From NCBI GenBank assembly GCA_964522395.1, contig CAZFVN010000002.1:43644-107643 (forward strand): a DNA stretch of 64,000 nucleotides, given 5' to 3'. Positions 1-40,122 of the stretch are shown in pieces. The DNA comes from an uncultured Myxococcales bacterium. GTDB taxonomy: Bacteria; Myxococcota_A; UBA9042; CAIXZC01. Made by a program: the position numbers and the translations under genes. Position 1 is the first letter of the stretch. Each line of letters starts with the position of its first letter. The notes beneath the pieces are model-generated. The model did no database searches, was not told where the DNA came from, and was given only the letters and a program-made list of their open reading frames with translations.

Positions 1-1
1 T

Positions 2-508
2 GAAGTGGTGGCTTGTGGTACCGAATCCCTCAACACGGGGGTGCTGGAGCCCGGGACCTATTACTTGATTGTCGATTCCAATGGCAATCTCCACAAGGGT
101 GACTTCTCCATGACTGTGGTGCCGTCGCCCCCTGATGCGCCTGACAATGACTCATGTGCGGCTCCTCAGCAGCTTATCTTCCAGAACAACATGTCCCAGG
201 CCAGCGGCATGACGCTCTTTAGTAATGACCTTTCCTCCGCACCATGCGGGGGGGCGGGAGCGCCAGAGAATGTCTTCACATTCGTGGTACCTGCCGGCAC
301 TTCCAAGGCGAGCTTCAATGTCGACGCCGACTTTGATCCCGCCATCTATATCGTGCTGGGAGATTGCAACGGGGCACCGGTGGCCTGTGTTCCAGCCGCC
401 AGCTATGACATGGGCTGGCCGGGGCAGGGCACCTACTACCTCTTCGTTGATGGCAAGACGGCCAACGACAAGGGGCTTTATACGTTGACTGTGACACTCA
501 CCCAGTAA
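2..508 (+). CDS. 3' fragment (the last ~169 codons) of a further array paralog whose start lies upstream of the window. It encodes a C-terminal PPC-like domain.
   Basis: The in-frame translation EVVACGTESLNTGVLEPGTYYLIVDSNGNLHKGDF...GQGTYYLFVDGKTANDKGLYTLTVTLTQ aligns with the C-termini of the genes at 17282-21391 and 21442-25554. There is no start codon inside the window. Confidence 0.85.
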   Translation, partial: EVVACGTESLNTGVLEPGTYYLIVDSNGNLHKGDFSMTVVPSPPDAPDNDSCAAPQQLIFQNNMSQASGMTLFSNDLSSAPCGGAGAPENVFTFVVPAGTSKASFNVDADFDPAIYIVLGDCNGAPVACVPAASYDMGWPGQGTYYLFVDGKTANDKGLYTLTVTLTQ

Positions 509-523
509 TTTGGGGGATTTTGG

Positions 524-3500
524 ATGCGTAGAATCGGATTCTTCTCAAGCCTACTCGTCTTGTTGCTTTCTCTTTCAGCCCAGGCTTCGGTCCCGGCGGC
601 TCTCTCCTACCAGGGTTTTTTGACAGACTCGGTGGGTAACCCCGTAACGGGGACCTGGACAGTTACCTTCGGCCTGTACGCAGGGCCGTCGGGGGGCGAG
701 GTGCTCTTTGAAGAGTCCCTCGATGTGACCACCGACAAGGGCCTCTTCAGCGTCTACCTGGGTACTCCGGATAATCCTCTGCCGGTAGGGTCATTTAAGG
801 CGGGGGAGCTCTTCCTGGAGCTGACAGTTGAAACCGATGATGGTCCAGTAGCGCTGACTCCCCGCCAGCAAGTAGTGTCGGACCCCTACGCCCTCTATGC
901 CCAGGATGCTGCTCAATTGGGCGGAGAGGATGCCGAAGCATTCGTCTTGCTGCAGCAATTGCCCGATCTCTGCGTCACGCCCGAAGCGCTGCCCGATGTG
1001 CTTGCAGAGTTGGGCATCGTCGGCGGTGGGCTGGACGAGGAGGCGCTGGCCGCCTGGCTGCTGGTCAACGGGTACAATGCCTGCGCTTGCTACGCAGACG
1101 ACAATGTCGCCAACTATCTGGCCGCGGCGGGCTATGAGCCTGGACCCTACTTCACTGGTTTGTACGAAGACCTTGTTGATTCTCCCGATCTCTCTATCTA
1201 TATGACGTCGGAAGATGTGGCAGCAGCACTCGCCAGCCTTGGGGCGGTACTTCTGGCCGACGGTTCCGTGGCCCTTGAGGGTGATTTTGATTTTGCTGGT
1301 TTTCAGGCTCTTAATCTGGCGGTGCACAATTCTGTAGACCCGCCCGCTGACCCTGCTGCCGGACAGCTTTGGTGGGATCTCAACCAAGTGATATTGAAGG
1401 TCTACACAGGGGAGGGATGGTCTGGCATCGGAGCTGGCGTGGCTGCCGATATTGCCTGTCCGGAGTGTGTAGATGCGGATGACGTTGCCTTTACCTTCGC
1501 AGCAGCCGATCAAAAGGGCGGCGCGGCGCTCAACGTGAACTGCTTCCAGTGCATCAACGGGGACGAGGTCAACTTCGCCTGGGCCAAAGGTGTCGAACCT
1601 GGGGGCGATGCTGAGCACGCCCTCACTGCGGATACCGCTTTGAACGCTGAGAAGGCCGCTGATCTGGAGTGTCCCGGCTGTGTCGATGTCGCTGACATCA
1701 ACCCTGTGGCCCTTGCTTCGGGCGTGGTTTCTTTTGATGATTCCAAGGCGAAATTGGGTGCGGCAACTGCCCAGGAGGCCTTTGAGAAGTTAGCCGCCAG
1801 TGGCGGTTCCGGTGCCGTAGAGGGTAACGGCACCATCATCTCCTATGTCGAGCAATGGGGATTGTCTGCCTACGGCTCTGCAACTACCTACATGCACCTT
1901 ATGAACCCGGCGTCACCCAAGGTGCTGATGCATCTCTATGCAGACGATTCAGCGAGCTTCGCTTCCTCGAACAACCTGGTAGTGGCATATGCCTTCGCCC
2001 CCAATCAGTATTCCGCTGGGGCCATGGGCAACCAGGGGGAGAACGCGCTGCAGGTGGGCAATCCCAGTACTTTCAACAGTGGCAGTCATATCATGATTCA
2101 TCAGACCCGGGGCAGTGATGGAGTCAGCGCGGGCACCTGGGAACTGAACCAGGTGAAGTCGGTAAACGGCTCGACCCTTCATCTGATAAAGCCGTTGGCC
2201 AACGACTACGTCACGGGTGGTTCAGCCAAAGCTCAGGTCGTACTGGCGGCTTCCTTCGGCAATGTTGAAATTGTTAACGGCGGCACCCTCAAGCCTTCTA
2301 TGGCACTCGCTGTGGATGGCTCCATGGGCGGCATTGTCTATGTTCGAGCCAACAAGATGACCGTCAAATCGGGCGGACGCATCGACGCGGATGGCATGGG
2401 CTTCCAGCCTTCGCCGGGGGGGTACTTCGCTCCCGGTTCGTCGGAGTGCGGAGTTGGTATTCCTGGCGAATCCGAGCAGAATTGCTCGGGGGGCGCCGCG
2501 GGTGCGATCCAATGTGCCAATGCAGGCGGTGGTGGCAACAAGGCCGCCGGGCAAAACGGCACCAACCACGGCAACTGTGCCACCGAAACGGAAGGCGGTG
2601 CGGCCAAGGGTGATGGCAATCTCAATACTCTGGAGTTTGGCGGCGCCGGCGGCACTCAGTTCGCCGGGGGCGGAGCTGGCGGCGGTATCGTAGTTATCGG
2701 CGCCCAGTCTTTTGTGGTACAGGATGGCGGCAAGGTCTCGGCAGATGGTTCTGTGGCCACAGACCGCGGTTCCGGTGGTGGCGCCGGCGGGACCATCGCA
2801 CTCTACGCAGATTTCCACCAGTTGGACGGTGAGGTGACGGCTGCAGGCGGCAAGGGTGGTGAAGTCCTGCAATGGAAGCATATCGAACCCAAACCCCTCA
2901 CTCCCGTTACTTTCAATACACGCTCCCACGGCGGGGGCTATAGTCCGAAGTATTTGGAATTCTGGTATCCGCATTGGTCGGGGTCGACTATCTACCGGTA
3001 TGACAGGAACTATACTCCCCTTGGTGATTTCACTTCTGGCAACAATAACATGATGCAACTCTGGGGCGATCCCGATGGCACCTACTACACTGCCAACTAC
3101 GGACAGGACCGAATACGGAAGTGGTCTGACAAGGGCAACAGCCAGATCTGGGAGTACTACAACGGCGGCACCACCAATGGTGTCTGCGCGGACGAAGACT
3201 ACGTCTATGCCATGCGCAGTAGCGGCAATGAGGTAAGGAAGCTCAACAAGACTACCGGCCAGCATGTCCAGACCTTCACAATATCGAACACTTCCAGCAC
3301 CGATGGCGCGCTACTGTGCACTCCAGGAAGGCTCTATTACGGTCGCACAGATGGCACTGTCTACTACCACGATACTTCCTCACATCAGCAACTTGGCTCA
3401 TTCTCCGCCGGTACAAATATCCACAACATGTCCTTTGACGGGCAGATCATGTACGTCTCGCCAAACTCGAGCACGGTTTCACGGATCCAACTCATAGAGG

Positions 3501-4624
3501 GGAACATCTACGAACCGGCAGGATCCGGCGGCGATGGCGGCGAAGGCTGGGTTGTGGAGAAGAGCCCCAAGGCCGGTATCATCAATGAATCCTATCCCAA
3601 GGGCATCCAGATCTGGATCGACGGAGAAGATGTCACCACCCAGGTAGGGGACCCCAACGGCAAGGGCAGTCCATCCTGGGATGCCCAGAACGGCATGTGG
3701 GGCAAAGATGGATTGGAGTCCTGGTCGACAGGGCAACTCGATCTGACCTCCGTTGCCAATTGGACGCTGGGTGAACACGCGATCCAGGTGAAAGAGACCG
3801 GCGGGGCGGGTGGAGATGTGAAGATGTTTGCCTACGTGGTCTATCCCTTCACCAAATCTGTAGCTCCAGTAAATGATACTTGTGACCAGCCGGTGATGCT
3901 CGACGTTTCTGACGCGGTAACCGTGACGGGTACCACGGAAGATGTCATGGGTAAGATCAAGGCAACTGATGCCAACACCGGGCCGTTCTGTGGCGGTTCG
4001 GGTGGTTCGGATGTGACCTACGGTTTTGTCTTGGACGACTGGCGCAGCCTGAGTATTTCGACGGTCTCTGCATTTACCCCCCGGGTCTACTTGCGCAAGG
4101 ACAGTTGCGCGGATGGCCAGGTGGTAGCGTGCGGTTCCAACCTCATCGATACCGGAGTCCTGGAACCGGGGACCTATTTCCTGGTGGTCGATTCCGATGG
4201 CAATTTGCAAAAGGGCAACTTCTCGCTGACCATTGTGCCCTCACCGCCCGACGCGCCAACCAACGATTCCTGCGCCATGCCCCAGCAATTGGTCTTCCAG
4301 AACAATGTTGCCAAGGCCAGCGGCATGACTCTTTTTTCTAACGACCTTTATTCCGCCGCGTGTGGTGGGGATGGTGCGCCGGAGAATACCTTCACTTTCG
4401 TGGTGCCGCCTGGAACTTCGAAGCTGGATATCGATGTCGACGCAGACTACGACCCGGTTATCTACATGGTCAAGGACAACTGCGAAGGGGGGCTGATAGC
4501 CTGCATTCCAGACAGTTCCTACCAGATGGGCTGGCCGGGACCGGGGACCTATTTCCTCTTCCTGGATGGCAAGACAGGCAATGACAAGGGGCTCTATGAG
4601 TTGTCCGTGAGCCTGGTGCAATAG
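524..4624 (+). CDS. Array paralog A, long form, 1366 aa. Secreted multidomain protein: conserved N-terminal domain, Gly-rich beta-helix-like core, beta-propeller-like insert, 2x C-terminal PPC-like domains.
   Basis: Uninterrupted ORF. Sec signal peptide MRRIGFFSSLLVLLLSLSAQA|SVPAAL. Conserved mature N-terminus AALSYQGFLTDSVGNPVTGTWTVTFGLY. GGAGGTQFAGGGAGGGIVVIGAQS glycine-rich repeats. C-terminal GTYFLVVDSDGN / DADYDP / GTYFLFLDGKT motifs typical of bacterial pre-peptidase C-terminal domains. Confidence 0.85.
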   Translation: MRRIGFFSSLLVLLLSLSAQASVPAALSYQGFLTDSVGNPVTGTWTVTFGLYAGPSGGEVLFEESLDVTTDKGLFSVYLGTPDNPLPVGSFKAGELFLELTVETDDGPVALTPRQQVVSDPYALYAQDAAQLGGEDAEAFVLLQQLPDLCVTPEALPDVLAELGIVGGGLDEEALAAWLLVNGYNACACYADDNVANYLAAAGYEPGPYFTGLYEDLVDSPDLSIYMTSEDVAAALASLGAVLLADGSVALEGDFDFAGFQALNLAVHNSVDPPADPAAGQLWWDLNQVILKVYTGEGWSGIGAGVAADIACPECVDADDVAFTFAAADQKGGAALNVNCFQCINGDEVNFAWAKGVEPGGDAEHALTADTALNAEKAADLECPGCVDVADINPVALASGVVSFDDSKAKLGAATAQEAFEKLAASGGSGAVEGNGTIISYVEQWGLSAYGSATTYMHLMNPASPKVLMHLYADDSASFASSNNLVVAYAFAPNQYSAGAMGNQGENALQVGNPSTFNSGSHIMIHQTRGSDGVSAGTWELNQVKSVNGSTLHLIKPLANDYVTGGSAKAQVVLAASFGNVEIVNGGTLKPSMALAVDGSMGGIVYVRANKMTVKSGGRIDADGMGFQPSPGGYFAPGSSECGVGIPGESEQNCSGGAAGAIQCANAGGGGNKAAGQNGTNHGNCATETEGGAAKGDGNLNTLEFGGAGGTQFAGGGAGGGIVVIGAQSFVVQDGGKVSADGSVATDRGSGGGAGGTIALYADFHQLDGEVTAAGGKGGEVLQWKHIEPKPLTPVTFNTRSHGGGYSPKYLEFWYPHWSGSTIYRYDRNYTPLGDFTSGNNNMMQLWGDPDGTYYTANYGQDRIRKWSDKGNSQIWEYYNGGTTNGVCADEDYVYAMRSSGNEVRKLNKTTGQHVQTFTISNTSSTDGALLCTPGRLYYGRTDGTVYYHDTSSHQQLGSFSAGTNIHNMSFDGQIMYVSPNSSTVSRIQLIEGNIYEPAGSGGDGGEGWVVEKSPKAGIINESYPKGIQIWIDGEDVTTQVGDPNGKGSPSWDAQNGMWGKDGLESWSTGQLDLTSVANWTLGEHAIQVKETGGAGGDVKMFAYVVYPFTKSVAPVNDTCDQPVMLDVSDAVTVTGTTEDVMGKIKATDANTGPFCGGSGGSDVTYGFVLDDWRSLSISTVSAFTPRVYLRKDSCADGQVVACGSNLIDTGVLEPGTYFLVVDSDGNLQKGNFSLTIVPSPPDAPTNDSCAMPQQLVFQNNVAKASGMTLFSNDLYSAACGGDGAPENTFTFVVPPGTSKLDIDVDADYDPVIYMVKDNCEGGLIACIPDSSYQMGWPGPGTYFLFLDGKTGNDKGLYELSVSLVQ

Positions 4625-4670
4625 CGCAGCAAACCGGTGCGGGCTGAGTGTCCGCCGGTGAGGGGTGACG

Positions 4671-7600
4671 ATGAAAGCAAGATGGGTAGTTGGAATCTCG
4701 GCAGCATTGGCAGTTTCTTTCATTCTGTTGCCCTCGATGGCAGTTCGCGCGGCCGCTCCAGCGGCGCTTTCATACCAGGGCTTTCTAACCGATTCGGTGG
4801 GCAATCCCGTGACCGGTACCTGGACGGTCTCGTTTGGTCTGTACGCAGAGCCATCAGGGGGGGAAGTGCTCTTTGAGGAGTCCCTCGACGTGACCACCGA
4901 TAAGGGTCTCTTCAGCGTCTACCTGGGTACCCCGGACAATCCTCTGCCGGTGGGCTCGTTTGAGGCAGGAGAGCTCTTTCTTGAGCTGACAGTTGAAACT
5001 GACGACGGTCCGGTGGCACTGACTCCGCGTCAGCAAGTCGTTTCAGACCCTTATGCCCTTTATGCCCAGGATGCTGCCCAGTTGGGCGGTGAGGATTCTT
5101 CATCATACGTGCTGCTCCAACAGTTACCGGACATTTGCATCACTCCTGAGGCATTGCCCGACGTTCTTGCTGAGTTGGGGATTGTTGGCGGTGGACTTGA
5201 TGAAGAGGCGCTGGCCGCCTGGCTGCTGGCCAATTCCTTTGTGGATGAGGCATTACTTGCGGCCTGGCTGCTGGACAATGGATATGACCCCTGTGCCTGT
5301 TACGGAGACGAGGGTGTGGCCGCTTACCTGGCCGCCGAGGGATTCGTCGCCGGTCCCCATTTCTCGGGGTCCTACGACGACCTGATGGATGCCCCCGATC
5401 TCTCCGGCTTCATGACCGCCGACGACATTGCCGAGGCCCTCTCCAATCTGGGTGCGGTGCTTCTCGCCGATGGGTCTGTAGCCCTCGAAGGCGACTTTGA
5501 TTTTGCCGGTTTCCAGGCCCTCAATCTGGCGGTGCACAATTCCGATGAGCCGCCGCTGGAACCGGTTGCCGGACAACTCTGGTGGGACCTAAACGAGGTT
5601 CTCTTGAAGGTCTACACCGGCGAAGGCTGGTCTGGCATCGGCACTGGTGTAGCGGCTGACATCGCCTGCCCTGAATGTGTGGATGCTGATGACGTGGCTT
5701 TCACCTTTGCTGCGGCCGACCAGAAGGGTGGTGCGGCGCTCAACGTCAACTGCTTCCAGTGTATCAAGGAAGAGGAAGTGAGCTTCGCCTGGGCCAAAGG
5801 CGTTGAGCCAGGCGGGGCGGCGGAGCATGCAGTCGTCTCCGATACTACCCTTGATGTGGCCTGTCCCGGCTGCGTCGATGTGGCCGATATCAATCCTGCA
5901 GCCCTCGCTTCGGGCGTGGTTTCCTTTGATGACTCCAAAGCCAAATTGGGTGCTGCAACTGCACAGGAGGCCTTCGAGAAGTTGGCGGCGGTTGGGGGCT
6001 CAAGTGCGGTGGAAGGCAACGGCACCATCGTTCCCTATGTCGAGCAATGGGGGCTTCCCGCATATGGCTCGGCCACGACCTATCTTCATCTCATGAACCC
6101 GGCTTCGCCAAAGGTGCTGATGCATTTGTATGCCGACGATTCGGCCAGCTTCGCGTCTTCCAATAATCTGGTCGTCGCCTACGATTTCGCCCCCAACCAG
6201 TATTCGGCCGGGGCCATGGGCAATGTCGGTGAGACCGCCTTGCAGGTTTCCAATCCCAGTACCTTCAACAGCGGTAGTCACATCATGATTCATCAGACCT
6301 GGGGCAGTGACGTTGCAACGGCCGGTACCTGGGAGCTCAATCAGGTGAAGTCGGTGAATGGCACGACCCTACATTTAATCAAACCGCTGGCCAATAGTTA
6401 TGTCACGGGAGGTGGCGCCAAAGCGCAGGTTGTGCTGGCCGCGTCGTTTGGCAACGTCGAAATCGTTAATGGCGGGACGCTCAAACCATCCCAACCTCTG
6501 GCGTTGGATGGCTCCATGGGTGGCATCGTCTATGTGCGGGCCAACAAGATGACCGTCAAGTCCGGTGGTAGAATCAATGCTGATGGTGCCGGTTTCCAAC
6601 CGACTCCAGGGGGCTATTTTGCCCCCGGCTCGTCAGAATGTGGCGTTGGGACCCCCGGCGAATCCGAGCAGAACTGTTCGGGTGGTGCGGCCGGTGCGGT
6701 GCAGTGTGCCAATGCCGGTGGCGGCGGCAATAAGACGGCGGGTCAAGACGGTACCGTCCACGGTGATTGCGAAGCCCAATCCAAGGGTGGTGTGGCCAAG
6801 GGTGACGCCAACTTAGGTACCCTTGAGTTTGGCGGAGCTGGCGGCACACAGTTTGAGGGCGGAGGAGCTGGCGGCGGTATCGTCGTCATCGGCGCCCAGT
6901 CTTTCGTGGTCCAGGATGGCGGTAAGGTTACGGCCGACGGGATCGCAGCTTCCGACCGCGGCTCGGCTGGCGGCGCCGGTGGAACTATCGCTCTCTACGC
7001 AGATTTCCATCAGTTGGACGGCGAAGTCATCGCTGAAGGTGGCGACGGAGCTGTAGTCAAGCAGTGGACCTACATTGAACCCAAGGCTCTCGGTACAGTG
7101 AATTTCGATACTCATTCCCACGGTGGCGGATATAGCCCCAAGTATAGGGAGTTCTGGTACCCGAAATGGGGGTCGAAGACCATCTACCGGTTCAACCTCG
7201 ACTACGAACCGCTGGGAACTTTTGATAGCGGTAACAATGATATGATGGGGTTCTGGGGTGACACGGACGGCACCTATTACACGGCCAACTGGGGCCAGGA
7301 CAGAATTCGTAAGTTCTCGGACAAGGGCGCCAGCCAGATCTGGGAGTATAGCCTCGGCTCCACCGCCGGCGCGGTTTGCGCCGATGAGAACTACGTCTAT
7401 GGCATGCGCCATGGTGATACAACGGTGTGGAAGCTCAACAAAGATACTGGGCAGCAGGTCGATACGTTCGCCTTGTCCGGTGCAAATAGTGCCTACGATT
7501 CGCTCATCTGTGCACCCGGGAGGTTCTACTACGGGCGCACCAACGGGCAGGTATATATCTACGACTCCAACTCGCATGGGCAGATTGGGAGTTTCAACGC

Positions 7601-8816
7601 AGGCATCAGCATTGATAGCGTAGCTTTCGACGGTCAGGTGATGTACGTCTCTCCGAACACCAGTACAGTGACCAGGTTCCAACTGGTGGATGGCAACGTC
7701 TACGAGCCAGCCGGTTCCGGTGGTGATGGTGGCGACGGGTGGGTAGTAGAGAAGACTCCTATTTCTGGGATCATTAATGAATCATATCCAAAGGGCATCG
7801 AGATCTGGATTGACGGAGAGGAAGTCACTGAGCAGGTGGGCGATCCCAATGCCAAGGGAACTCCGGCCTGGGATGTTGCAACCAACAAGTGGGGTAAGGA
7901 CGGTTTAGAGGCTTGGTCTACGGGGCCCCTGGACCTTACGTCGGTTGCTAACTGGACCCTGGGCGAACACTCCATCCAGGTGAAAGAGACTGGCGGCGCG
8001 GGTGGCGACGTCAAGATGTTCGCCTATGTCATCTATCCCTTCACCAAATCGACGGCTCCCGTAAACGATACTTGCGACCAGCCGGTGATGCTTGACCTTT
8101 CGGATGCGGTGACCGTTTCTGGCACCACTGAAGATATCATGGGCAAGGTCAAGGCTACCGATGCCAATACCGGACCGTTTTGTGGTGGTTCGGGTGGTTC
8201 GGATGTGACCTACGGGTTCACCCTCACTGACTGGCGCAGTCTGAGCATTGCGGTCACCTCCGCCTTCACGCCAAGGGTCTATTTGCGCAAAGACTCTTGC
8301 GCCGATGGTCAGGTGGTGGCGTGCGGGACAAACCTCATTGATACCGGGGTGCTGGAGCCGGGGACTTACTATCTGGTGGTAGATTCCGATGGCAACATGC
8401 AGAAGGGTAATTTCAGCCTGACCGTAGTGCCATCACCACCTGACGCCCCCGGCAATGACTCGTGTGCCGGGCCACAACCAATGATCTTCCAGAACAACAC
8501 TGCCCAGGCCAGCGGCATGACTTTTTTCTCTAACGACCTCTACTCGGCCGCGTGTGGTGGAGCCGGGGCGCCAGAGAACATCTTTACCTTTGTGGTACCG
8601 CCCGGGACGTCCAAACTGGATATCAATGTGGATGCCGACTACGACCCCGCCATCTACATGGTCAAGGATGCCTGCGAAGGCGCACTTATTGCGTGCATTC
8701 CAGACAGCACCTATCAGATGGGCTGGCCGGGACCGGGGACCTACTTCCTCTTCTTGGACGGCAAAACCGCCAACGACAAGGGGCTCTACGAGTTGACCGT
8801 GAGTATCACTCAGTAG
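4671..8816 (+). CDS. Array paralog B, long form, about 1381 aa from ATG 4671. Secreted multidomain protein of the same family.
   Basis: The ORF track starts at a GTG at 4665. The ATG at 4671 gives MKARWVVGISAALAVSFILLPSMAVRA|AAPAAL and lies after GAGGGGTGA. About 90% aa identity to paralog A over the N-terminal ~450 aa, with many synonymous differences. Confidence 0.8.
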   Translation: MKARWVVGISAALAVSFILLPSMAVRAAAPAALSYQGFLTDSVGNPVTGTWTVSFGLYAEPSGGEVLFEESLDVTTDKGLFSVYLGTPDNPLPVGSFEAGELFLELTVETDDGPVALTPRQQVVSDPYALYAQDAAQLGGEDSSSYVLLQQLPDICITPEALPDVLAELGIVGGGLDEEALAAWLLANSFVDEALLAAWLLDNGYDPCACYGDEGVAAYLAAEGFVAGPHFSGSYDDLMDAPDLSGFMTADDIAEALSNLGAVLLADGSVALEGDFDFAGFQALNLAVHNSDEPPLEPVAGQLWWDLNEVLLKVYTGEGWSGIGTGVAADIACPECVDADDVAFTFAAADQKGGAALNVNCFQCIKEEEVSFAWAKGVEPGGAAEHAVVSDTTLDVACPGCVDVADINPAALASGVVSFDDSKAKLGAATAQEAFEKLAAVGGSSAVEGNGTIVPYVEQWGLPAYGSATTYLHLMNPASPKVLMHLYADDSASFASSNNLVVAYDFAPNQYSAGAMGNVGETALQVSNPSTFNSGSHIMIHQTWGSDVATAGTWELNQVKSVNGTTLHLIKPLANSYVTGGGAKAQVVLAASFGNVEIVNGGTLKPSQPLALDGSMGGIVYVRANKMTVKSGGRINADGAGFQPTPGGYFAPGSSECGVGTPGESEQNCSGGAAGAVQCANAGGGGNKTAGQDGTVHGDCEAQSKGGVAKGDANLGTLEFGGAGGTQFEGGGAGGGIVVIGAQSFVVQDGGKVTADGIAASDRGSAGGAGGTIALYADFHQLDGEVIAEGGDGAVVKQWTYIEPKALGTVNFDTHSHGGGYSPKYREFWYPKWGSKTIYRFNLDYEPLGTFDSGNNDMMGFWGDTDGTYYTANWGQDRIRKFSDKGASQIWEYSLGSTAGAVCADENYVYGMRHGDTTVWKLNKDTGQQVDTFALSGANSAYDSLICAPGRFYYGRTNGQVYIYDSNSHGQIGSFNAGISIDSVAFDGQVMYVSPNTSTVTRFQLVDGNVYEPAGSGGDGGDGWVVEKTPISGIINESYPKGIEIWIDGEEVTEQVGDPNAKGTPAWDVATNKWGKDGLEAWSTGPLDLTSVANWTLGEHSIQVKETGGAGGDVKMFAYVIYPFTKSTAPVNDTCDQPVMLDLSDAVTVSGTTEDIMGKVKATDANTGPFCGGSGGSDVTYGFTLTDWRSLSIAVTSAFTPRVYLRKDSCADGQVVACGTNLIDTGVLEPGTYYLVVDSDGNMQKGNFSLTVVPSPPDAPGNDSCAGPQPMIFQNNTAQASGMTFFSNDLYSAACGGAGAPENIFTFVVPPGTSKLDINVDADYDPAIYMVKDACEGALIACIPDSTYQMGWPGPGTYFLFLDGKTANDKGLYELTVSITQ

Positions 8817-8818
8817 TT

Positions 8819-8935
8819 CTAATGGGTGAGGCAAACGATGGGTACGAAGGGAGTGGGTGGAGCAAATGGGCGAGGCAAATGGGTGAGGCAAGTGGGTGAG
8901 GCAAACGATGGATACGAAGGGAATGGGAGAGGCAC
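8819..8935 (+). repeat. Local tandem duplication of the inter-paralog leader motif, with about 4 copies of GGGTGAGGCAAA-like 12-mers.
   Basis: GGGTGAGGCAAACGATGGGTACGAAGGGAGTGGG occurs at about 8824-8858 and again at about 8894-8928 as ...GATGGATACGAAGGGAATGGG. Intervening copies are TGGGCGAGGCAAA and TGGGTGAGGCAAG. Confidence 0.7.
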
Positions 8936-8937
8936 AA

Positions 8938-13050: not shown

Positions 13051-13092
13051 AGTAGCAACCGGTGTGGACTCAAAGCCGCACCAGAGGAGTTG

Positions 13093-25554: not shown

Positions 25555-25605
25555 TTTCAACGGGTGAGCCAATTGATGAGCACGACCCAAATGGATGGTT
25601 CAAAT

Positions 25606-29187: not shown

Positions 29188-29238
29188 TCCTACTGGGTGG
29201 AGCAAAAAATGAGCAGGAACAGAAATGGGTGGTTCAAC

Positions 29239-32200: not shown

Positions 32201-32811
32201 TGGTCTATGCCTTCACCCTGGATGACTGGCGGCAACTCTCCATATCAGTGACCTCCGCACACACGCCGCGCGTATACATTAAAAAGGACGACTGCGCCGG
32301 GGGCGAAGTGGTGGCTTGCGGCGAAGACTCATTTGCAACTGGAGTGCTGCAACCCGGTACCTATTATCTCTTCGTGGATGCCGACGGCAATCTGCAAAAG
32401 GGCGACTTCGCGCTCACGGTGACGCCGGCACCTCCCGATGCTCCGGACAATGATACTTGCGCGGTCCCGCAGCAACTGGTCTTCCAGAACAACACTTCTC
32501 AGGTATCGGGCATGACGCTCTTTAGCAGCGACGACTATTCGGCCGCTTGTGGTGGCGCCGGCGCACCAGAGAATGTCTTCCAATTCACCGTTCCGGCGGG
32601 CATCTCTGCCTTGAACATCTCGGTGGATGCTGACTTCGCTCCGGCAATGTATCTGGCCAAAGAGAATTGCGATGGCGCGCCAATTGCTTGTGTCCCCGCC
32701 GACACCTATCAGATGGGCTGGCCGGGCCAGGGTACCTACTACCTCTTCCTCGATGGGAAGGGCGCGGATGCTAAGGGGCTCTACACTTTGACTGTTACAA
32801 TGGAGCAATAG
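29239..32811 (+). CDS. Array paralog H, short form. Secreted protein.
   Basis: The ORF is open from 29197. The probable start is ATG 29239 (MLRKINRSAGCLLFVFAVMLSSSAQA|EAPAAL). GGGTGG lies 7 nt upstream of the ATG. Confidence 0.75.
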   Translation: MLRKINRSAGCLLFVFAVMLSSSAQAEAPAALSYQGFLTDSVGNPVTGTWTLSFGLYSVPVGGSPLFEESLNVTTDKGLFSVYLGTPDNPLPTDSFSSGQLFLELTVETDDGPVALTPRQQVVSDPYAIFAHDAEQLGGEDSSSYVLLQQLPDLCITPEALPDVLEDLGIGGGGLDEEALAAWLLANSFLDEVSLSAWLLANGYDPCACYGDDGVAAYLAAEGFVAGPHFSGLYEDLVDPPDLSGFMTSDNVAELLSDLGAVLLADGSVALDGSLDFAGFEALNLAVHNSEDAPAEPAVGQLWWDLNEALLKVYTGEAWSGIGTGVAADIACPECVDADDVAFTFAAADQKGGSALNVNCFQCINADEVSFAWAKGVLPGGDAEHALTADTATSALTADTAADVECPGCVNAGDLAADAVHSQKVVFDDTKTQLGASTVQGAIEKMAEDGGGNAVEGLGTIVPYVQQWGLPAYGKAENHIHLMNPSTPKVVAHVYASESTSFATSNNLVVAYNHNPNQYSPVSQGTAGDNALEVGNPSIFNYGNHILVHQSVGTGGNGTGAGNWELNQVVGVNGNTLLLAKPLNNTYSSADCKQGRAQAVVAASYNLLEVTSGGKIYPSENFHGDEVRGGIVYVRARKIVVKSGGSIEVNGRGFEGGDNYECNQPSEQGHSECSVCDNQWSSSPNCSGGGGGGHGCHHPAYGGGGGGGNKAAGGAGTGSQKGSGGNSKGDGSLSAIHMGGGGGMVYSQPGGRGGGIIVLGAETIIVEPGGSISANGTNGGNTGSGHQAGGGGGAGGTVALYAEQVVNSGTISATGGKGGTGPQGNGGDGGEGWVVQLDPVSGVVNESYPKGLELYVDGQEVTPLVGDPNGKGAPYWDAENGKWGKDGLTAWNTGPLDLTSVANWTLGEHTVALHETGGAGGELKLYLYVIYPYSKSSPPVNDTCDQPVMMNLAGPVTMTGSTEDIMGKLKATDAHSGPFCGGSGGPEVVYAFTLDDWRQLSISVTSAHTPRVYIKKDDCAGGEVVACGEDSFATGVLQPGTYYLFVDADGNLQKGDFALTVTPAPPDAPDNDTCAVPQQLVFQNNTSQVSGMTLFSSDDYSAACGGAGAPENVFQFTVPAGISALNISVDADFAPAMYLAKENCDGAPIACVPADTYQMGWPGQGTYYLFLDGKGADAKGLYTLTVTMEQ

Positions 32812-32888
32812 CTCTAGTGGGTGAGACATTTCTAACGGGTGAGGCTTCAATGGGTGAAACAGAAGATGACTGGAAGAGGTGGTTCAAT

Positions 32889-35800
32889 ATGCTAGGGAAA
32901 CTCAACCGTAGTGCCGGTTTCGTGTTGTTCGTGCTGACCGTGCTGGCGTCCTTCTCAGCTCAGGCCGCGGTCCCCACGGCGCTCTCATATCAGGGTTTTC
33001 TAACTGACTCAGTGGGCAACCCGGTGACCGGCACGTGGACCGTCACTTTCGGGCTCTTTGCCGATCCCAACGGCGGTGCGCCCCTCTTTGAGGAGTCCCT
33101 GGATGTGACCACGGATAAAGGGCTCTTCTCGGTCTACCTGGGAACTCCGGACAATCCGTTGCCACTTGCCTCCTTCGAGTCGGGAACGCTCTTCCTGGAA
33201 TTGACCGTTGAAACTGACGATGGCCCGGTTTCATTGACTCCCCGGCAGCAAGTTGTCTCCGATCCTTTCGCACTCTACGCTCAGGACGCAGCTCAACTTG
33301 GAGGTGAGGACGCATCGGCGTTTGTGCTGCTGCAGCAATTGCCCGATCTATGCGTTACTCCGGAGGCCCTACCAGACGTATTGACAGAGCTTGGGATTAC
33401 CGGTGGAGGTCTTGACGAAGAGGCACTTGCCGCCTGGCTGCTCGCCAACTCCTTTGTCGACGAGGTGTCCCTGGCGGCCTGGCTGCTGGCCAACGGGTAT
33501 GATCCGTGCGCCTGCTATGGCGATGAGGGTGTGGCCGCCTATCTGGCTGCCGAGGGATTCATGGCAGGGCCGCATTTCTCTGGCCTCTATGGGGACCTTG
33601 TTGACTCACCCGATCTCTCGTCATATGTGACAGCCGAAGATGTGGAGCAGGCACTCTCAGACCTCGGTGCCGTCCTCCTCGCCGATGGCTCGGTTGCTCT
33701 CGAAGGGAACCTCGATTTTGCAGGCTACCAGGCCCTCAATCTGGCGGTTCACAATTCGGAAGAGGCACCGGAAGAACCAGTCGTTGGGCAGCTCTGGTGG
33801 GACCTCACTGAGGGCCTGCTCAAGGTCCATACGGGTGATGGATGGTCAGGAATTGGCACTGGCGTGGCGGCAGACATCGCCTGCCCAGAATGTGTCGATG
33901 CCGACGACGTAGCGTTCACTTTTGCCGCCGCAGATCAGAAGGGCGGGGCTGCACTCAATGTCAATTGCTTCCAGTGCATCAATGCTGATGAGGTGAGCTT
34001 CGCATGGGCCAAAGGAGTGCTACCGGGCGGAGATGCTGAACATGCGCTGACTGCAGACACCGCGGTCAACGCGCTAACTGCCGAAACCGCAGGTGACGTC
34101 GAGTGCCCCGGTTGTGTAGATGCCGGTGATCTGGCCGTTGGTGCCATGCACTCGGACAAGGTCGTCTTCGACGACACCAAGACCCAAATCGGTGCAGGTT
34201 CGGTGCAGGCGGCCCTGGAGCACGCCCTGTCGGCTGGAGCCAGCGGTGCGGTAGAAGGAAACGGGACCATTGTTCCATTTGTAGAGCAGTGGGGTCTGCC
34301 GGCTTACGGTGAGGCCACCACATACGTCCACCTCATGAATCCCAGCCAGCCTAAAGTCCTGGCCCATCTCTATGCCGGGGAATCGAGCAGCTTCTCCACA
34401 TCCAATAACCTCGTGGTGGCTTACAGCTTCGCGCCCAACCAATACTCTGGCGGTGTCAACGGTACCGCTGGAGAGCAGGCTTTGCAGGTAACCAACCCCT
34501 CGAGCTTCTCCGTGGGAGCCCACATTCTCATTCATCAGACCGTAGGCACCGGGGGCAACGGCACCAATGCCGGCCAGTGGGAGCTCTCTCAGGTCCTGGG
34601 CATCGAGGGTTCGACGCTTCTGCTGGCAAAGGAGTTGCAGCATACGTTCACTTCTTGCGGCAATGATTGTGGTTACGCGCAGGCTGTGGTGGCTGCCTCA
34701 TACAATCAGTTGGAGGTGGTCAACGGCGGGACTATCAGTCCTTCAATGAATGCCCATGACCAGGGGGACAAGAAGGGCAGTATCATCTTCATCAGAGCTC
34801 GCAAGATCGTTCTGAAGACGGGCGGTAAGATCCAAGCCAATGGTTATGGTCCCTACAATAGGGGTGATACGTGGGGAGGCGACTACCGAGGCGAAACAGC
34901 GTCGTCGCAGTGCAAAATTGATAATGGAAGCTGGGGTCCGGCCAACAACTGCTCGGGTGGTGGCGGTGGTGGCAAGCACATAATTGAGTGGTCAAATACA
35001 TGCGGTGGGGGGGGCGGTGGAAACAAGACGGCTGGACAGAAAGGCAAGGGGAACAGCAACAATGGCGGCCACGGAGGCTCTGCATGGGGTGATGCAAACG
35101 CCGATATATTGACCTTTGGAGGGTCCGGCGGAAGTTCCTATTATGGTCGAGCCGGATGGGGTGGAGGCCTCATCGTTCTGGGAGCGGAGACCATCATCGT
35201 CGAAAATGGTGCTTCGATCACTGCAAACGGAAATACGGGCGATTGTCCATGGGGTAATCATGGTTCCCATGGTGGCGGTGGCGGCGGAGCCGGTGGATCT
35301 ATTGTCCTCTTTGCCAAGGAGCTGCTCAACAGCGGAACTGTAACCGCTGACGGTGGCGCCGGGAAGCACTGCGGCGATGCCGTTAACATCGGCGGCAACG
35401 GTGGCGACGGCTGGGTCATTCACAAGGACCCCGTTGACGGCACTGTCAATGAGAGTTTCGCGAAGGGTGTTGAACTCTGGCTCGATGGTGAGAATGTTAC
35501 TGCTCAAATTGGGGATCCCAATGCCAAGGGGGCCCCGGCCTGGAATGCGGATGATCAGAACTGGGGGGCCGATGGCCTTGCCGGGTGGTCTACCGGGCCG
35601 CTGGATTTGACTGCCGCGGCCAATTGGACGTTGGGCGAACATAAGATCCAGCTCAAAGAGACCGGTGGTGCGGGTGGCGACGTCAAACTCTTCACCTACA
35701 TCATCTATCCCTTCACCAAGTCGACTCCGCCGGTAAACGATACTTGCGACCAGCCAGTGTTGCTGGATGTGTCGGGCCCGACCACGGTAACCGGCACCAC

Positions 35801-36488
35801 TGAAGATATCATGGGCAAATTGAAGGCCACCGATGCCCATTCCGGACCGTTTTGCGGCGGGGCCGGAGGGCCGGAAGTTGTTTATGCATTCACCTTGGAA
35901 GAGTGGCGGCAGCTCACTCTCTCGGTGACCAGCGCGTTTACGCCGCGGGTCTATATCAAGAAGGGAAGTTGCACCGACGGTGAAGTGGTTGCGTGTGGCA
36001 CCGACCAGGTAACAACTGGCGTCTTCGAACCTGGAACCTACTATCTCTTCCTCGATTCAGATGGCAACCTGCAGAAAGGCGACTTCTCCCTTACAGTGAC
36101 CCCCACTCCCCCTGATTCACCGGCCAACGACTCTTGTGCCGGGCCGGAGCAACTGCTTTTCCAGAACAATGTGGCCCAGATCTCCGGCATGACTCTTTTT
36201 TCTAACGACCTCTACTCTGCCGCGTGCGGTGGCGCTGGTGCACCCGAAAACGTCTTCACCTTCACGGTGCCGGCCGGGCTTTCATCGTTGGATATCGCCG
36301 TGGATGCTGACTACGACCCCGCTATCTATGTTGTGAAGGACTCTTGTGACGGCAATCCTGTGGCCTGCATTCCGGCCAACAGCTACCAGATGGGCTGGCC
36401 CGGATCGGGTGTTTATTATCTCTTCCTCGACGGCAAAACCGCCAACGACGAAGGGCTCTACACACTGACCATTACCCTCAATCAGTAG
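32889..36488 (+). CDS. Array paralog I, short form. Secreted protein.
   Basis: The ORF is open from 32817. The probable start is ATG 32889 (MLGKLNRSAGFVLFVLTVLASFSAQA|AVPTAL). Confidence 0.75.
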   Translation: MLGKLNRSAGFVLFVLTVLASFSAQAAVPTALSYQGFLTDSVGNPVTGTWTVTFGLFADPNGGAPLFEESLDVTTDKGLFSVYLGTPDNPLPLASFESGTLFLELTVETDDGPVSLTPRQQVVSDPFALYAQDAAQLGGEDASAFVLLQQLPDLCVTPEALPDVLTELGITGGGLDEEALAAWLLANSFVDEVSLAAWLLANGYDPCACYGDEGVAAYLAAEGFMAGPHFSGLYGDLVDSPDLSSYVTAEDVEQALSDLGAVLLADGSVALEGNLDFAGYQALNLAVHNSEEAPEEPVVGQLWWDLTEGLLKVHTGDGWSGIGTGVAADIACPECVDADDVAFTFAAADQKGGAALNVNCFQCINADEVSFAWAKGVLPGGDAEHALTADTAVNALTAETAGDVECPGCVDAGDLAVGAMHSDKVVFDDTKTQIGAGSVQAALEHALSAGASGAVEGNGTIVPFVEQWGLPAYGEATTYVHLMNPSQPKVLAHLYAGESSSFSTSNNLVVAYSFAPNQYSGGVNGTAGEQALQVTNPSSFSVGAHILIHQTVGTGGNGTNAGQWELSQVLGIEGSTLLLAKELQHTFTSCGNDCGYAQAVVAASYNQLEVVNGGTISPSMNAHDQGDKKGSIIFIRARKIVLKTGGKIQANGYGPYNRGDTWGGDYRGETASSQCKIDNGSWGPANNCSGGGGGGKHIIEWSNTCGGGGGGNKTAGQKGKGNSNNGGHGGSAWGDANADILTFGGSGGSSYYGRAGWGGGLIVLGAETIIVENGASITANGNTGDCPWGNHGSHGGGGGGAGGSIVLFAKELLNSGTVTADGGAGKHCGDAVNIGGNGGDGWVIHKDPVDGTVNESFAKGVELWLDGENVTAQIGDPNAKGAPAWNADDQNWGADGLAGWSTGPLDLTAAANWTLGEHKIQLKETGGAGGDVKLFTYIIYPFTKSTPPVNDTCDQPVLLDVSGPTTVTGTTEDIMGKLKATDAHSGPFCGGAGGPEVVYAFTLEEWRQLTLSVTSAFTPRVYIKKGSCTDGEVVACGTDQVTTGVFEPGTYYLFLDSDGNLQKGDFSLTVTPTPPDSPANDSCAGPEQLLFQNNVAQISGMTLFSNDLYSAACGGAGAPENVFTFTVPAGLSSLDIAVDADYDPAIYVVKDSCDGNPVACIPANSYQMGWPGSGVYYLFLDGKTANDEGLYTLTITLNQ

Positions 36489-36503
36489 CAACAGGTGAAC
36501 ACC

Positions 36504-39500
36504 ATGAAGAGAATTGCCATCGTATCTGGTCTCCTGGTCCTACTTCTGTCCTTTGCCGCTCAGGCGGCAGCTCCCGCTGCACTGTCGTACCAGGGCTTTC
36601 TCACCGATTCTGTGGGTAACCCGGTAACTGGGACCTGGACCATAACTTTCGGGCTCTATGCGGCTCCTAGTGGAGGGCAAGAACTCTTTGAGGAGTCTCT
36701 TGACGTGACCACGGACAAGGGATTATTCAGCGTCTACCTCGGTACGCCTGACAATCCGCTTCCCACGGCATCCTTTGAAGCGGGGCAACTCTTTCTGGCC
36801 CTGACCGTAGAAACGGACGATGGCCCGGTGACGCTGACGCCTCGTCAGCAAGTGGTGTCAGATCCATATGCCCTCTATGCTCAAGATGCCGCTCAGTTGG
36901 GGGGCGAGGACGCTGAGGCCTTTGTGTTACTGCAGCAACTACCTGACCTGTGCATTACGCCAGACGCTCTTCCCGCTGTTCTGGCAGATTTGGGCATCAC
37001 TGGAGGTGGTCTGGACGAAGAGGCCCTGGCCGCGTGGCTCCTGGCCAATTCGTTCGTAGATGAGACTGCTCTTGCGGTCTGGCTACTAGCCAATGGGTAT
37101 GACCCGTGTGCCTGCTACGGGGATGAGGGCGTTGCCGCATATCTTGCGGCCGAGGGGTTTGTGGCAGGGCCCCACTTCTCCGGTCTCTACGACGACCTCA
37201 TCGATTCTCCTGACCTTTCAGGATTCATGACCGCGGACGATGTGGCCGAGGCCCTCTCGAACCTTGGTGCCGTGCTGCTCGCTGATGGTTCTGTTGCACT
37301 TGAAGGTGACCTGAATTTTGCCGGATACCAGGCTCTGAATCTGGCAGTTCATAACTCCGAAGAGGCGCCTGTAGAACCGGTGGCTGGCCAACTTTGGTGG
37401 GACTCTGGCGATGCGATGCTGAAGATCTATGATGGTGATGACTGGGGGAGTGTTGGCACCGGCGTGGCGGAGGATGTTGCTTGTCCTGAGTGCGTCGATG
37501 CCGATGATGTGGCCTTTACCTTTGCCGCTGCTGATCAGAAGGGCGGTGCATCGCTGAATGTGAACTGCTTCCAGTGCATTAATGCCGATGAGGTTAGTTT
37601 CGCCTGGGCCAAAGGTGTTTTACCCGGCGGCGATGCAGAGCATTCGCTGACCGCTGACCTGGCGACCTCTGCACTCACCGCTGAGTTGGCTCAGGACGTC
37701 GAATGTCCCGGCTGTGTGAATGCCGGTGACATCGATCCGAATGCCCTCGACTCCAAGGTAGTCAAGTACGATGGCGCTGGCTCTGGCCTCGGTTCCAACT
37801 CGGTGCAGGGAGCTATTGACGAGTTGGCATCTAGCGGCTCTGGGGACCTCAATGAAGGCAATGGAACTATTGTCCCTTATGTTCAGCAGTGGGGTCTCCC
37901 CGCATATGGCAAGGCCGAGAATCATATCCACCTCATGAACCCTTCCCAGCCCAAAGTCGTGGCCCATGTCTATGCTAGCGAATCGACCAGTTTTGCGACC
38001 TCCAATAATCTGGTTGTGGCATATAACCATACGCCCAACCAGTACAGCGAAGTCTCGCAAGGTACCGCTGGCGATACCGCGCTGGAAGTGAACAACCCCA
38101 GCATCTTCAACTATGGAAATCATATTCTGGTCCACCAGTCTGTCGGCACAGGTGGAAATGGCGCCGGGGCTGGTAACTGGGAGTTGAATCAGGTCATTGG
38201 GGTCAATGGCAACACACTGCTATTGGCCAAGCCGCTAGAGAAAACCTATTCCTCTGGAGACTGCGATGATGGTCGTGCCCAGGCCGTGGTGGCCGCGTCC
38301 TACAACCTTCTGGAGGTTGTGTCGGGTGGTAACATCATGGCCAATGAGACTTTCTACAGTGGGGGCGAATCACGAGGTGGAATTGTATACGTGAGAGCGC
38401 GGAAGATCGTGGTGAAGTCAGGTGGCAAGATCCAAGTGGATGGACGCGGCTTCTATGGGGCCAATTCATACGAGTGCGGACCACCACGGGTCACAGAGAA
38501 GGGCCACTCAGAGTGCAATGTTTGCGACAATCTGGTTTCCTTCTATGGCACGGCCCCCAATTGTTCTGGTGGCGGGGGTGGAAATCACAATTGCTGGTAT
38601 CCCGGAAAGGGTGGCGGAGGTGGCGGTGGGAACAAGACTGCGGGGAAAGACGGCGTCGGTTCTGAGCCTGGCAAGGGCGGACTAACAAAGGGGGATGCTA
38701 ACCTGGCTACCTTGCAGTTTGGTGGTGGTGGTGGACGAGCGATGCACACGAACGCGGGACATGGTGGCGGCATCATCGTTCTGGGTGCCGAGACGATCAT
38801 CGTCGAACCAGGAGGTAGCATTACCGCTAACGGGAGCGCCGGGGTGAATGATGGCAATGGCAACTATGCCGCTGGAGGCGGGGGAGGTGGCGGTACGGTG
38901 GCTCTCTTCGCAGATCAGGTAATGAACGAGGGTACTATTGTCGCCGCGGGTGGCAAGGGAGGCACCGCCCCCCAGGGCAATGGCGGAGATGGCGGCGAAG
39001 GCTGGGTGGTTCAAAAGGACCCCATTTCCGGCGTGGTCAATGAGTCCTATCCAAAGGGCCTGGAAATATATGTTGACGGTCAGGAGGTAACCCCCCTCGT
39101 GGGCGATCCAAATGGCAAAGGGGCACCTTCCTGGGACGCTGAGGTGGGCAAATGGGGAGCAGATGGTCTCACTGAATGGAACACCGGTCCATTGGATCTA
39201 ACGTCAGTGGCCAACTGGACTCTGGGTGAGCATACCATTGCTTTGCATGAGACGGGTGGAGCGGGTGGTGAGTTGAAGCTCTATCTCTACGTGATCTACC
39301 CATTTACCAAATCTTCGGTGCCGGGCAACGACACCTGCGATGGTCCGACCTTCCTTAATCTCGCAAATCCCGTGACCGTCTCCGGTACCACCGAGGACAT
39401 CATGGGCAAGATCAAAGCTACCGATGCCAGCCAGGCGCAGTTCTGCGGCGGCTCCGGTGGTCCCGATGCCATCTACGCCTTCACCCTCGATGACTGGCGA

Positions 39501-40076
39501 CAACTGGCCGTCAGCGTGAAGGCACCATTCACGCCGCGCACCTACATCAAGAAGGGGGACTGCATTACTGGCGAGGTTGCGGGTTGCGGAACTGATTCCT
39601 GGCAATCCAAGGTCCTGGAACCGGGTACTTACTACTTCTATATCGATGGCGATGGCAATCTGCAGAAGGGTGATTTCTCCTTTACGTTGACGCCCTCTCC
39701 GCCGGGACCCCCGGCTAACGATAGCTGTGCTGGCCCAATGTCCCTGGTCTTCCAAGACGGCACCGCCCAGGTCAATGAAATGAGTCTCTTTGCCACGGAC
39801 ACTTACTCGGCAGTTTGTGGTGGAACTGGTGCTCCGGACCTTGTCTATACCTTCAATGTGGCCCCCAATACCAGCAAACTCACTATCACCGTTGATGGGG
39901 ACTTCGACCCCGCCATCTACGTTACCAAAGACTCGTGCGATGCCAATCCCATCGCCTGCGTTCCACAAGGTTCCTATCAGATGTCCTGGCCCACCCCGGG
40001 CACCTACTACCTATTTGTCGATGGCAAGACCGCTCAGGATAAGGGTCTCTTTACGCTGACTCTAACGACAGAGTAG
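36504..40076 (+). CDS. Array paralog J, short form, about 1190 aa. It is the last copy of the array.
   Basis: The track starts at a GTG at 36495. ATG 36504 gives MKRIAIVSGLLVLLLSFAAQA|AAPAAL. The C-terminal PPC-like domains are the most diverged of the array (TTE end). Confidence 0.8.
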   Translation: MKRIAIVSGLLVLLLSFAAQAAAPAALSYQGFLTDSVGNPVTGTWTITFGLYAAPSGGQELFEESLDVTTDKGLFSVYLGTPDNPLPTASFEAGQLFLALTVETDDGPVTLTPRQQVVSDPYALYAQDAAQLGGEDAEAFVLLQQLPDLCITPDALPAVLADLGITGGGLDEEALAAWLLANSFVDETALAVWLLANGYDPCACYGDEGVAAYLAAEGFVAGPHFSGLYDDLIDSPDLSGFMTADDVAEALSNLGAVLLADGSVALEGDLNFAGYQALNLAVHNSEEAPVEPVAGQLWWDSGDAMLKIYDGDDWGSVGTGVAEDVACPECVDADDVAFTFAAADQKGGASLNVNCFQCINADEVSFAWAKGVLPGGDAEHSLTADLATSALTAELAQDVECPGCVNAGDIDPNALDSKVVKYDGAGSGLGSNSVQGAIDELASSGSGDLNEGNGTIVPYVQQWGLPAYGKAENHIHLMNPSQPKVVAHVYASESTSFATSNNLVVAYNHTPNQYSEVSQGTAGDTALEVNNPSIFNYGNHILVHQSVGTGGNGAGAGNWELNQVIGVNGNTLLLAKPLEKTYSSGDCDDGRAQAVVAASYNLLEVVSGGNIMANETFYSGGESRGGIVYVRARKIVVKSGGKIQVDGRGFYGANSYECGPPRVTEKGHSECNVCDNLVSFYGTAPNCSGGGGGNHNCWYPGKGGGGGGGNKTAGKDGVGSEPGKGGLTKGDANLATLQFGGGGGRAMHTNAGHGGGIIVLGAETIIVEPGGSITANGSAGVNDGNGNYAAGGGGGGGTVALFADQVMNEGTIVAAGGKGGTAPQGNGGDGGEGWVVQKDPISGVVNESYPKGLEIYVDGQEVTPLVGDPNGKGAPSWDAEVGKWGADGLTEWNTGPLDLTSVANWTLGEHTIALHETGGAGGELKLYLYVIYPFTKSSVPGNDTCDGPTFLNLANPVTVSGTTEDIMGKIKATDASQAQFCGGSGGPDAIYAFTLDDWRQLAVSVKAPFTPRTYIKKGDCITGEVAGCGTDSWQSKVLEPGTYYFYIDGDGNLQKGDFSFTLTPSPPGPPANDSCAGPMSLVFQDGTAQVNEMSLFATDTYSAVCGGTGAPDLVYTFNVAPNTSKLTITVDGDFDPAIYVTKDSCDANPIACVPQGSYQMSWPTPGTYYLFVDGKTAQDKGLFTLTLTTE

Positions 40077-40122
40077 AGTCAACACCTGCCTGGGGAGGAA
40101 TCCACACGACAGGGGGAAGGCT

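Follow-up and report, generated by a model that had tools for sequence, protein, structure and literature searches.

Fibers known as MATs (mosaic adhesive trimers) were presented in 2024 as the means by which Bdellovibrio recognizes many kinds of prey (Caulton et al. 2024, PMC10769870). MATs are defined by a conserved β-rich domain located right after the signal peptide; they form trimeric β-prism/β-helix fibers (“meandering trimerization”) with swappable adhesive tips (PMC10769870). The MAT N-domain has no homolog in the PDB, and its surface receptor is not known; Table S3 of the same paper lists an FGE-tipped MAT as well as β-helix-tipped MATs from Myxococcales and Bradymonadaceae (Caulton et al. 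2024, PMC10769870). Here, we analyzed a 64,000-nt stretch of contig CAZFVN010000002.1 from an uncultured Myxococcales bacterium (below, the window), the first 40 kb of which carries a head-to-tail array of paralogous genes for secreted multidomain proteins. We favor, with a probability of roughly 0.6, the reading that the array encodes surface-anchored binding fibers of the MAT superfamily, distantly related to the MATs of predatory bacteria.

The array proteins resemble the MATs of Bdellovibrio bacteriovorus in several respects. In both, a signal peptide is followed by a conserved β-rich N-domain of ~110–130 aa without a PDB homolog, the proteins are about 1000–1400 aa long and contain β-helix segments and adhesion-type domains, and there are many paralogs per genome. 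The wider family that shares the N-module of the array also swaps distal domains, an FGE tip included, as MATs do. The two sets differ in organization: The array holds 13 copies head to tail, whereas the 21 genes of strain HD100 are mostly dispersed and, judging by locus tags, form at most adjacent pairs. All 13 array proteins end in the same PPC-like pair and diverge mid-protein, and they possess extra conserved CxxC and helical-repeat segments. Unlike the S74 subgroup of MATs, they contain no S74 domain and would fit the non-S74 type.

The relationship to MATs is seen in the N-terminal part of the proteins. A scan of ten copies, restricted to their N-terminal ~200 aa, gave Bdello_MAT_N (NF053851, “mosaic adhesive trimer family chimeric fiber protein”) as the only NCBIfam match; G1 and G10, the first and last copies complete in the window, match it as full-length proteins. 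In total, the model was matched by 12 of 12 tested copies (E values from 1e-9 to 3e-12, 38–47 bits), colinearly over model positions 2–160 of 162 and directly after the signal peptide. The E values and this placement indicate that the N-domain is homologous to the MAT N-domain, at the superfamily level only; as the scores fall short of NCBI's curated threshold, the proteins lie outside the curated Bdellovibrio subfamily. An N-domain profile run against a word-indexed protein database returned only six uninformative matches. An exhaustive search revealed the same N-module joined to P-domain (proprotein-convertase), FGE-sulfatase, and DUF1554/endostatin-like ends, and all ten remote N-module relatives examined match MAT_N, the sole fiber model matched. 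Because these relatives join one N-module to different distal ends, the wider family appears to be mosaic in the way MAT fibers are.

Close relatives of the array proteins are rare: Only 67 were found among 5.8 billion clustered proteins, none with an assigned name. They come from aquatic metagenome-assembled genomes (MAGs) labeled Myxococcales, Myxococcota, or Deltaproteobacteria. The source organism, likewise recovered from metagenomes only, is placed with Myxococcota MAGs. Tandem sets were also observed for a more distant branch with shorter proteins, in other MAGs labeled Myxococcota or “Proteobacteria” (L022, L024, and L026–L028), with at least four copies in L024. Copies of this branch are several hundred residues shorter, as estimated from the spacing of tblastn matches, and their N-domains are about 30–40% identical to those of the array.

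The original prediction described ten complete open reading frames (ORFs) of 1193–1385 aa and a 3′ fragment, all in one orientation, with nothing else interspersed, an essentially invariant mature N terminus, and spacers of 15–120 bp. An ORF listing reproduced this layout: Ten complete + strand paralogs of 1193–1385 aa lie between positions 524 and 40076, and the only further ORFs in 1–40079 that reach 300 aa are antisense and located inside array genes. Gaps between maximal ORFs are 5–79 nt long; when likely ATG starts (26–32 codons 5′ of the LSYQGF motif) are used instead, the spacers measure roughly 15–125 nt. A conserved ribosome-binding region of the GGGTGGTTCAA type stands before several of these probable starts. 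The proteins can be aligned end to end at 63–82% pairwise identity with all Cys positions kept, and their mature N terminus (AAPAALSYQGFLTDSVGNPV...PRQQVVSDPYALYAQDA) is nearly invariant. Described as giant, an overstatement for proteins of about 1200–1400 aa, they also fall into two subtypes that the original prediction missed, a long one with a 216-aa β-propeller insert and a short one without it. The array genes in the window are as follows (U1–U3 are names given here to three copies at the 5′ end of the array).

1..508, + strand: 3′ end of U3, array copy 3 (frame-2 translation matches the family C terminus)
524..4624, + strand: G1, long type, 1366 aa (ORF and alignment)
4665..8816, + strand: G2, long type (likely ATG at 4671)
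8896..13050, + strand: G3, long type (likely start at 8938)
13090..17211, + strand: G4, long type (likely start at 13093)
17282..21391, + strand: G5, long type (ORF and alignment)
21397..25554, + strand: G6, long type (likely start at 21442)
25564..29187, + strand: G7, short type, without the propeller (likely start at 25606)
29197..32811, + strand: G8, short type (likely start at 29239)
32817..36488, + strand: G9, short type (likely start at 32889)
36495..40076, + strand: G10, short type, last array gene (likely start at 36504; a convergent gene is next)

The original prediction had the array running past the 5′ edge of the window, and contig extension confirmed this. The head of the window is 100% identical to L001:21946-24119 of the source contig, JGI Ga0115649_1000032 (264,497 bp), on which another 11.9 kb of the array precedes the window, holding the first two copies and the beginning of the third. 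In full, the array comprises 13 genes over 52,021 bp, the first being P0014 (1372 aa), and is the largest single one met in this analysis. Nine long copies (U1–U3 and G1–G6) are followed by four short ones (G7–G10). The 13 genes form a single same-strand array that is probably co-transcribed for the most part.

Tandem repeats are classically prone to misassembly, and the array could in principle be an assembly or annotation artifact or a set of decaying duplicates. We see almost no chance of this. Four independent assemblies (the source and three others) show the same arrangement at ~99.9% identity, and the DNA of the paralogs is only about 73–78% identical, which excludes repeat collapse or artifactual expansion. 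All 13 reading frames are intact and full-length, with a ratio of nonsynonymous to synonymous divergence (dN/dS) of 0.04–0.3. The locus is probably neither an artifact nor, as considered below, an enzyme cluster, but a stable toolkit of surface binding proteins.

The domain anatomy of the array proteins is given below in the numbering of G1. AlphaFold2 (AF2) models were of monomers, and confidence values (pLDDT) for the middle region were taken from the G10 model. The signal peptide, also part of the original prediction, was read directly from the sequence rather than called by a predictor.

524..586, + strand: Sec-type signal peptide, aa 1–21, cut between AQA and SVP, equivalent in all copies (hydrophobic core and AxA)
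587..913, + strand: N-domain, a Bdello_MAT_N-like β-sandwich, aa 22–130 (NF053851; AF2 pLDDT 85)
914..1228, + strand: helical, Cys-containing spacer of short repeats, aa 131–235 (alignment)
1229..1423, + strand: phage-tail-fiber-like motif (LLADGSVALEGDFDFAGFQALNLAVHNS...GQLWWD), aa 236–300 (PHROG and tblastn)
1424..1798, + strand: three CxxC repeats (CPECV, CFQCI, and CPGCV), aa 301–425 (invariant Cys columns)
1799..2323, + strand: β-sandwich 5′ of the helix, aa 426–600 (AF2 strands, pLDDT 65–91 in the G10 equivalent)
2324..2878, + strand: Gly-rich β-helix, aa 601–785 (NF047640; tailspike structures; pLDDT 74–96)
2879..3526, + strand: predicted β-propeller insert of the NHL/PknD type, aa 786–1001, long copies only (profile versus PDB)
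3527..3859, + strand: second β-sandwich (GGDGGEGW...ETGGAGG), aa 1002–1112 (alignment and AF2)
3860..4621, + strand: two tandem C-terminal jelly rolls (PPC/collagen-binding-domain-like), aa 1113–1366, with a conserved Cys in each (Foldseek)

The number of units in the helical spacer differs between copies, one 15-aa unit being the size of the indel in the alignment, and the same repeats are found in relatives that share the N-module. The motif that follows matches PHROG 8309 (phrog_8309; E = 2e-5) and the tail fiber protein of Streptococcus phage Javan290 (42% identity over 59 aa, E = 6e-6 by tblastn). The likeness to phage fibers consists of this short motif, which is common to the Streptococcus phage protein, cyanophage structural proteins, and PHROG 8309, and of a β-helix that resembles those of phage tailspikes. 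Unlike phage fibers, the array proteins carry a Sec signal peptide and are encoded in a chromosomal context with no phage genes nearby, and no relative of theirs is encoded on IMG/VR viral contigs. In the first β-sandwich, an invariant polar cluster was observed in G1 (E433, H458, H522, H526, and E540, including an HxxxH; aa 433–540, window about 1820–2143) and at the equivalent positions of the other copies; the cluster may bind a metal or some ligand.

The β-helix matches the family gliding_AgmC_N (NF047640; E = 1e-17, 63–64 bits, model positions 37–394 of 412), and Foldseek aligned it with phage tailspikes (4y9v and 4ru4). Each of these matches brings in an alternative. Myxococcus AgmC (adventurous gliding motility protein C) and SprB-type adhesins are proteins with which a role in gliding could be compared: The array proteins might be adhesins for the substratum that are engaged by the myxobacterial motility machine, with paralogs suited to different substrata. 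The Gly-rich β-helix is indeed homologous to the AgmC N-terminal domain, and the lineage is Myxococcota. However, the score is far under the equivalog cutoff of NF047640 (63–64 versus 275 bits), the Gly-rich helix is all that is shared, and the remaining architecture is different. In addition, neither the window nor the fetched flanks contained identifiable glt/agl motility genes, and a literature search turned up no openly accessible work on what AgmC does. We therefore regard a gliding role as unlikely, while noting that it would overlap with the binding-fiber reading, as both describe adhesins, and sequence alone does not separate the two.

The tailspike matches would also fit secreted polysaccharide depolymerases in which the β-helix is catalytic and the jelly rolls act as carbohydrate-binding modules, as Foldseek matches include tailspikes and capsule depolymerases of phages (4y9v, 4ru4, KP34, and K64-1). 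These matches are weak and generic, with E values of ~1e-5 against the PDB and at least 1e-4 against viral depolymerases and TM-scores not exceeding 0.14. The proteins matched no family of glycoside hydrolases, lyases, or pectate lyases, and almost every invariant residue of the helix is Gly, Asn, or Cys; a conserved acidic pair is absent. A depolymerase function is, in our estimation, very improbable. More generally, scans against Pfam, NCBIfam, and PHROGs matched no enzyme family, nor did they match S74 or a peptidase, in line with the original prediction, in which no catalytic motif had been recognized and a clear enzymatic domain was named as what would overturn it. Full-length proteins of the window gave nothing in Pfam at E ≤ 1 except for one noise match.

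The propeller insert is 216 aa long and sits between the last rungs of the β-helix. Its profile matched the designed protein Pizza7H (E = 1.3e-16, four matched stretches) and PknD (1rwi, E = 2.6e-5) in the PDB; WD40/PknD matches cover insert positions 38–206, and PQQ_2 was matched in 11 of 14 members. By profile comparison, the insert of long copies is predicted to be an NHL/PknD-type β-propeller of roughly five blades, the number following from a blade length of ~42 aa. It thus resembles the NHL propeller of PknD, the source of the designed “Pizza” proteins (E = 1e-16 to Pizza, ~42-aa blades), but would have about five blades instead of six, is inserted between β-helix rungs, and has no kinase context.

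For the C-terminal pair, the top Foldseek match in the PDB is the s3a-s3b tandem of ColG (5iku, E = 7e-8). The likeness to collagen-binding domains is at the level of the modeled fold, and calcium or collagen binding is only putative. The earlier assignment of a Gly-rich β-helix followed by two PPC-like domains holds, although the resemblance to PPC (PF04151) and GBD_T9SS_assoc (PF23759) is seen only via relatives: Sequence relatives of the C-terminal domain match PF23759 and PF04151, whereas the array proteins themselves are under the Pfam thresholds and do not reach the gathering score of PF04151. An exhaustive profile search found 42,258 proteins with this domain type, with up to 19 copies per protein, and by this count it appears to be a very common extracellular repeat. 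Structural matches were also obtained to viral tail proteins and to PA14 and CUB domains. At the level of the whole protein, a sequence profile gave only a chance CxxC match in the PDB. The best viral structural match of the G10 model, from BFVD, was a protein of Bathycoccus sp. RCC716 virus 1 that contains a PA14 domain (~1000 columns, E = 3e-24, low TM-score), which suggests that this giant-virus protein may have a similar helix-plus-jelly-roll architecture.

Paralogs and their subgroups were compared by domain with the Nei-Gojobori method. The proportion of synonymous differences (pS) was 0.65–0.75, i.e., saturated, in every domain and every paralog subgroup. The nonsynonymous proportion (pN) was 0.06–0.08 in the N-domain, 0.13–0.18 in the C-terminal domains, 0.18–0.28 in the β-helix, and 0.26–0.35 in the propeller insert, the most diverged part. 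In every domain of the mature protein, dN/dS was below about 0.35. Since synonymous sites of the N terminus are as saturated as those elsewhere, its invariance can be attributed to purifying selection; recent gene conversion was considered as the cause and rejected on the same ground.

In a neighbor-joining tree, most paralogs of the window pair with their own orthologs on other contigs and not with their array neighbors. In related populations, the array occupies the same locus and is flanked by the same genes on both sides: a gene for a Cys-rich protein 5′ and genes for a 651/652-aa protein, a TPR protein, a 377-aa protein, Sua5, and NadB 3′. The search for the same array in related genomes, proposed earlier as a check, thus yielded syntenic arrays of different copy number. 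In one relative, the array spans 35,994 bp, corresponding to nine copies (seven long and two short) versus 13 here; in another, orthologs of G7 and G8 are missing (arrays compared: L034/L036, ENA NODE_402_length_120117, and L033, NODE_827_length_115264). A three-copy array interrupted by a minus-strand gene for 434 aa in L035 was discarded as a gene-calling artifact, L035 being 99.98% identical to L034. Overall, the sequence comparisons portray the array as an old, maintained repertoire that appears to expand and contract slowly, with no fast-switching cassettes. The description of the family as diversified in place is not supported if it is taken to mean rapid or surface variation, given saturated pS, dN/dS below 0.35, and separate orthologs elsewhere.

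A 12-nt motif, TGGGTGAGGCAA, recurs in the spacers. It forms one tandem cluster.

8823..8935, + strand: six tandem copies of TGGGTGAGGCAA in the G2–G3 spacer (motif scan)

Single copies are found in spacers at 17238, 21398, 25561, 29194, and 32818, just 3′ of stop codons. There are 24 matches versus 7.5 expected, and all five exact matches are intergenic. The motif may act in regulation or in translation coupling, or it may provide an alternative in-frame “MGEA” start. Right after the G4 stop codon, a consensus scan, the only evidence here, picked out a terminator-like hairpin (17218–17240; AACCG-GTG-CGGTT followed by a T-run), which might mean that the array is transcribed as two separate units.

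Both the motif and the hairpin could allow differential expression, and many same-strand copies with a common N terminus might serve phase or antigen variation, with one or few copies expressed at a time and the changing surface evading phages or grazers. Yet, the sequences bear no trace of recombination or gene conversion, as saturation of synonymous sites is seen throughout, and orthologs correspond 1:1 across populations. All copies are intact full-length genes, no silent cassettes are present, and no invertase or recombinase was identified beside the array. We give variation of this kind only a slim chance.

A gene for a 357-aa Cys-rich protein lies 14 nt before array copy 1 (L001:8914-9987, 11–13 kb 5′ of the window). 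The protein combines a signal peptide and a lipoprotein-like Cys with a Dicty_CTDC repeat. The gene is found directly 5′ of the first fiber gene on the source contig and at five other loci (L014, L016, L020, L032, and L034), with 45–83% identity.

We propose the following scheme for the binding fibers. Judging from the signal peptide in their sequences, all paralogs are exported by the Sec pathway. The invariant N-module, consisting of the β-sandwich, the helical spacer, the tail-fiber motif, and the CxxC repeats, may oligomerize and would dock every paralog onto one common element of the cell surface. The Cys-rich putative lipoprotein whose gene precedes copy 1 is a candidate for this role. 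The distal part (the first β-sandwich, the β-helix with the lateral propeller in the nine long copies, the second β-sandwich, and the jelly rolls) would project outward and could bind ligands outside the cell, for instance glycans or proteins carried by prey, particles, or matrix. Because most of the divergence is in the helix and the propeller, the 13 copies would constitute a fixed repertoire of specificities.

Since the probably co-transcribed paralogs share a nearly identical putative oligomerization module, hetero-oligomers may form and multiply specificities combinatorially. This leads to a more elaborate version of the scheme, “one dock, many fibers,” in which the Cys-rich putative lipoprotein is the surface anchor of the MAT-type N-module and the 13 paralogs also mix as hetero-oligomers. 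We consider this version speculative and rather doubtful.

Several observations weigh against assigning the array to MAT-type surface fibers. The NF053851 scores of 38–47 bits are below the curated NCBI cutoff of 60, and the N-domain had no Foldseek match in the PDB at E < 1e-3. The G10 monomer model is poor for aa 122–458, with pLDDT below 50 at aa 321–458; a model of this kind is compatible with an obligate oligomer but is no proof of one. The C-terminal tip is alike in all copies, unlike in Bdellovibrio MATs, and divergence is located mid-protein. The Cys-rich neighbor is missing at several dispersed fiber loci (L007, L010, and L019), and the content of the window shows no sign of a predator lifestyle. 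The claim that the array is a repertoire of adhesins and not housekeeping is partly upheld: The MAT_N homology, the tail-fiber motif, the tailspike-like helix, the ColG-like pair, and the lack of enzymes speak for it, while we infer surface display, trimerization, the anchor partner, ligand binding, and a role in predation.

On its 3′ side, the array is followed by a convergent gene and by two further genes, and all three are conserved at this position in close relatives.

40123-42078, − strand: 651-aa protein without a Pfam match, convergent with the array (N-terminal hydrophobic segments, Lys/Glu-rich, then a Gly-rich stretch)
42253-42993: TPR protein, conserved 3′ of the array in close relatives
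43029-44162: 377-aa protein, conserved 3′ of the array in close relatives

Further along, three more ORFs for large secreted-type proteins were observed (46609-51183 and 51047-53629 on the − strand and 53337-56087 on the + strand). They include MopE-type Cys-rich repeats with thrombospondin type 3 repeats and a lamin-tail-domain protein. One of the starts of the first two was probably miscalled, since these ORFs overlap by 137 nt. Rfam and tRNA scans of the window yielded nothing real; an ARAGORN “tRNA-???” with a two-base anticodon at 17551–17647 is located inside the G5 coding sequence and is almost certainly spurious.

If the binding-fiber reading is correct, the locus is a deep-branching version of the MAT superfamily in uncultured aquatic Myxococcota that has gone unannotated, its proteins being “hypothetical” everywhere and without a Pfam match. 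MATs grouping with Myxococcales were already listed (PMC10769870); the array would extend MAT-type chimeric fibers to Myxococcota in a new organization. It would also follow a different logic of diversification, in which the tip is conserved while the shaft and the lateral propeller vary. The Cys-rich gene kept in conserved synteny is a concrete candidate for the anchor of the N-domain. Because the DNA of the paralogs is only about 75% identical, each copy should be separately trackable in metatranscriptomes.

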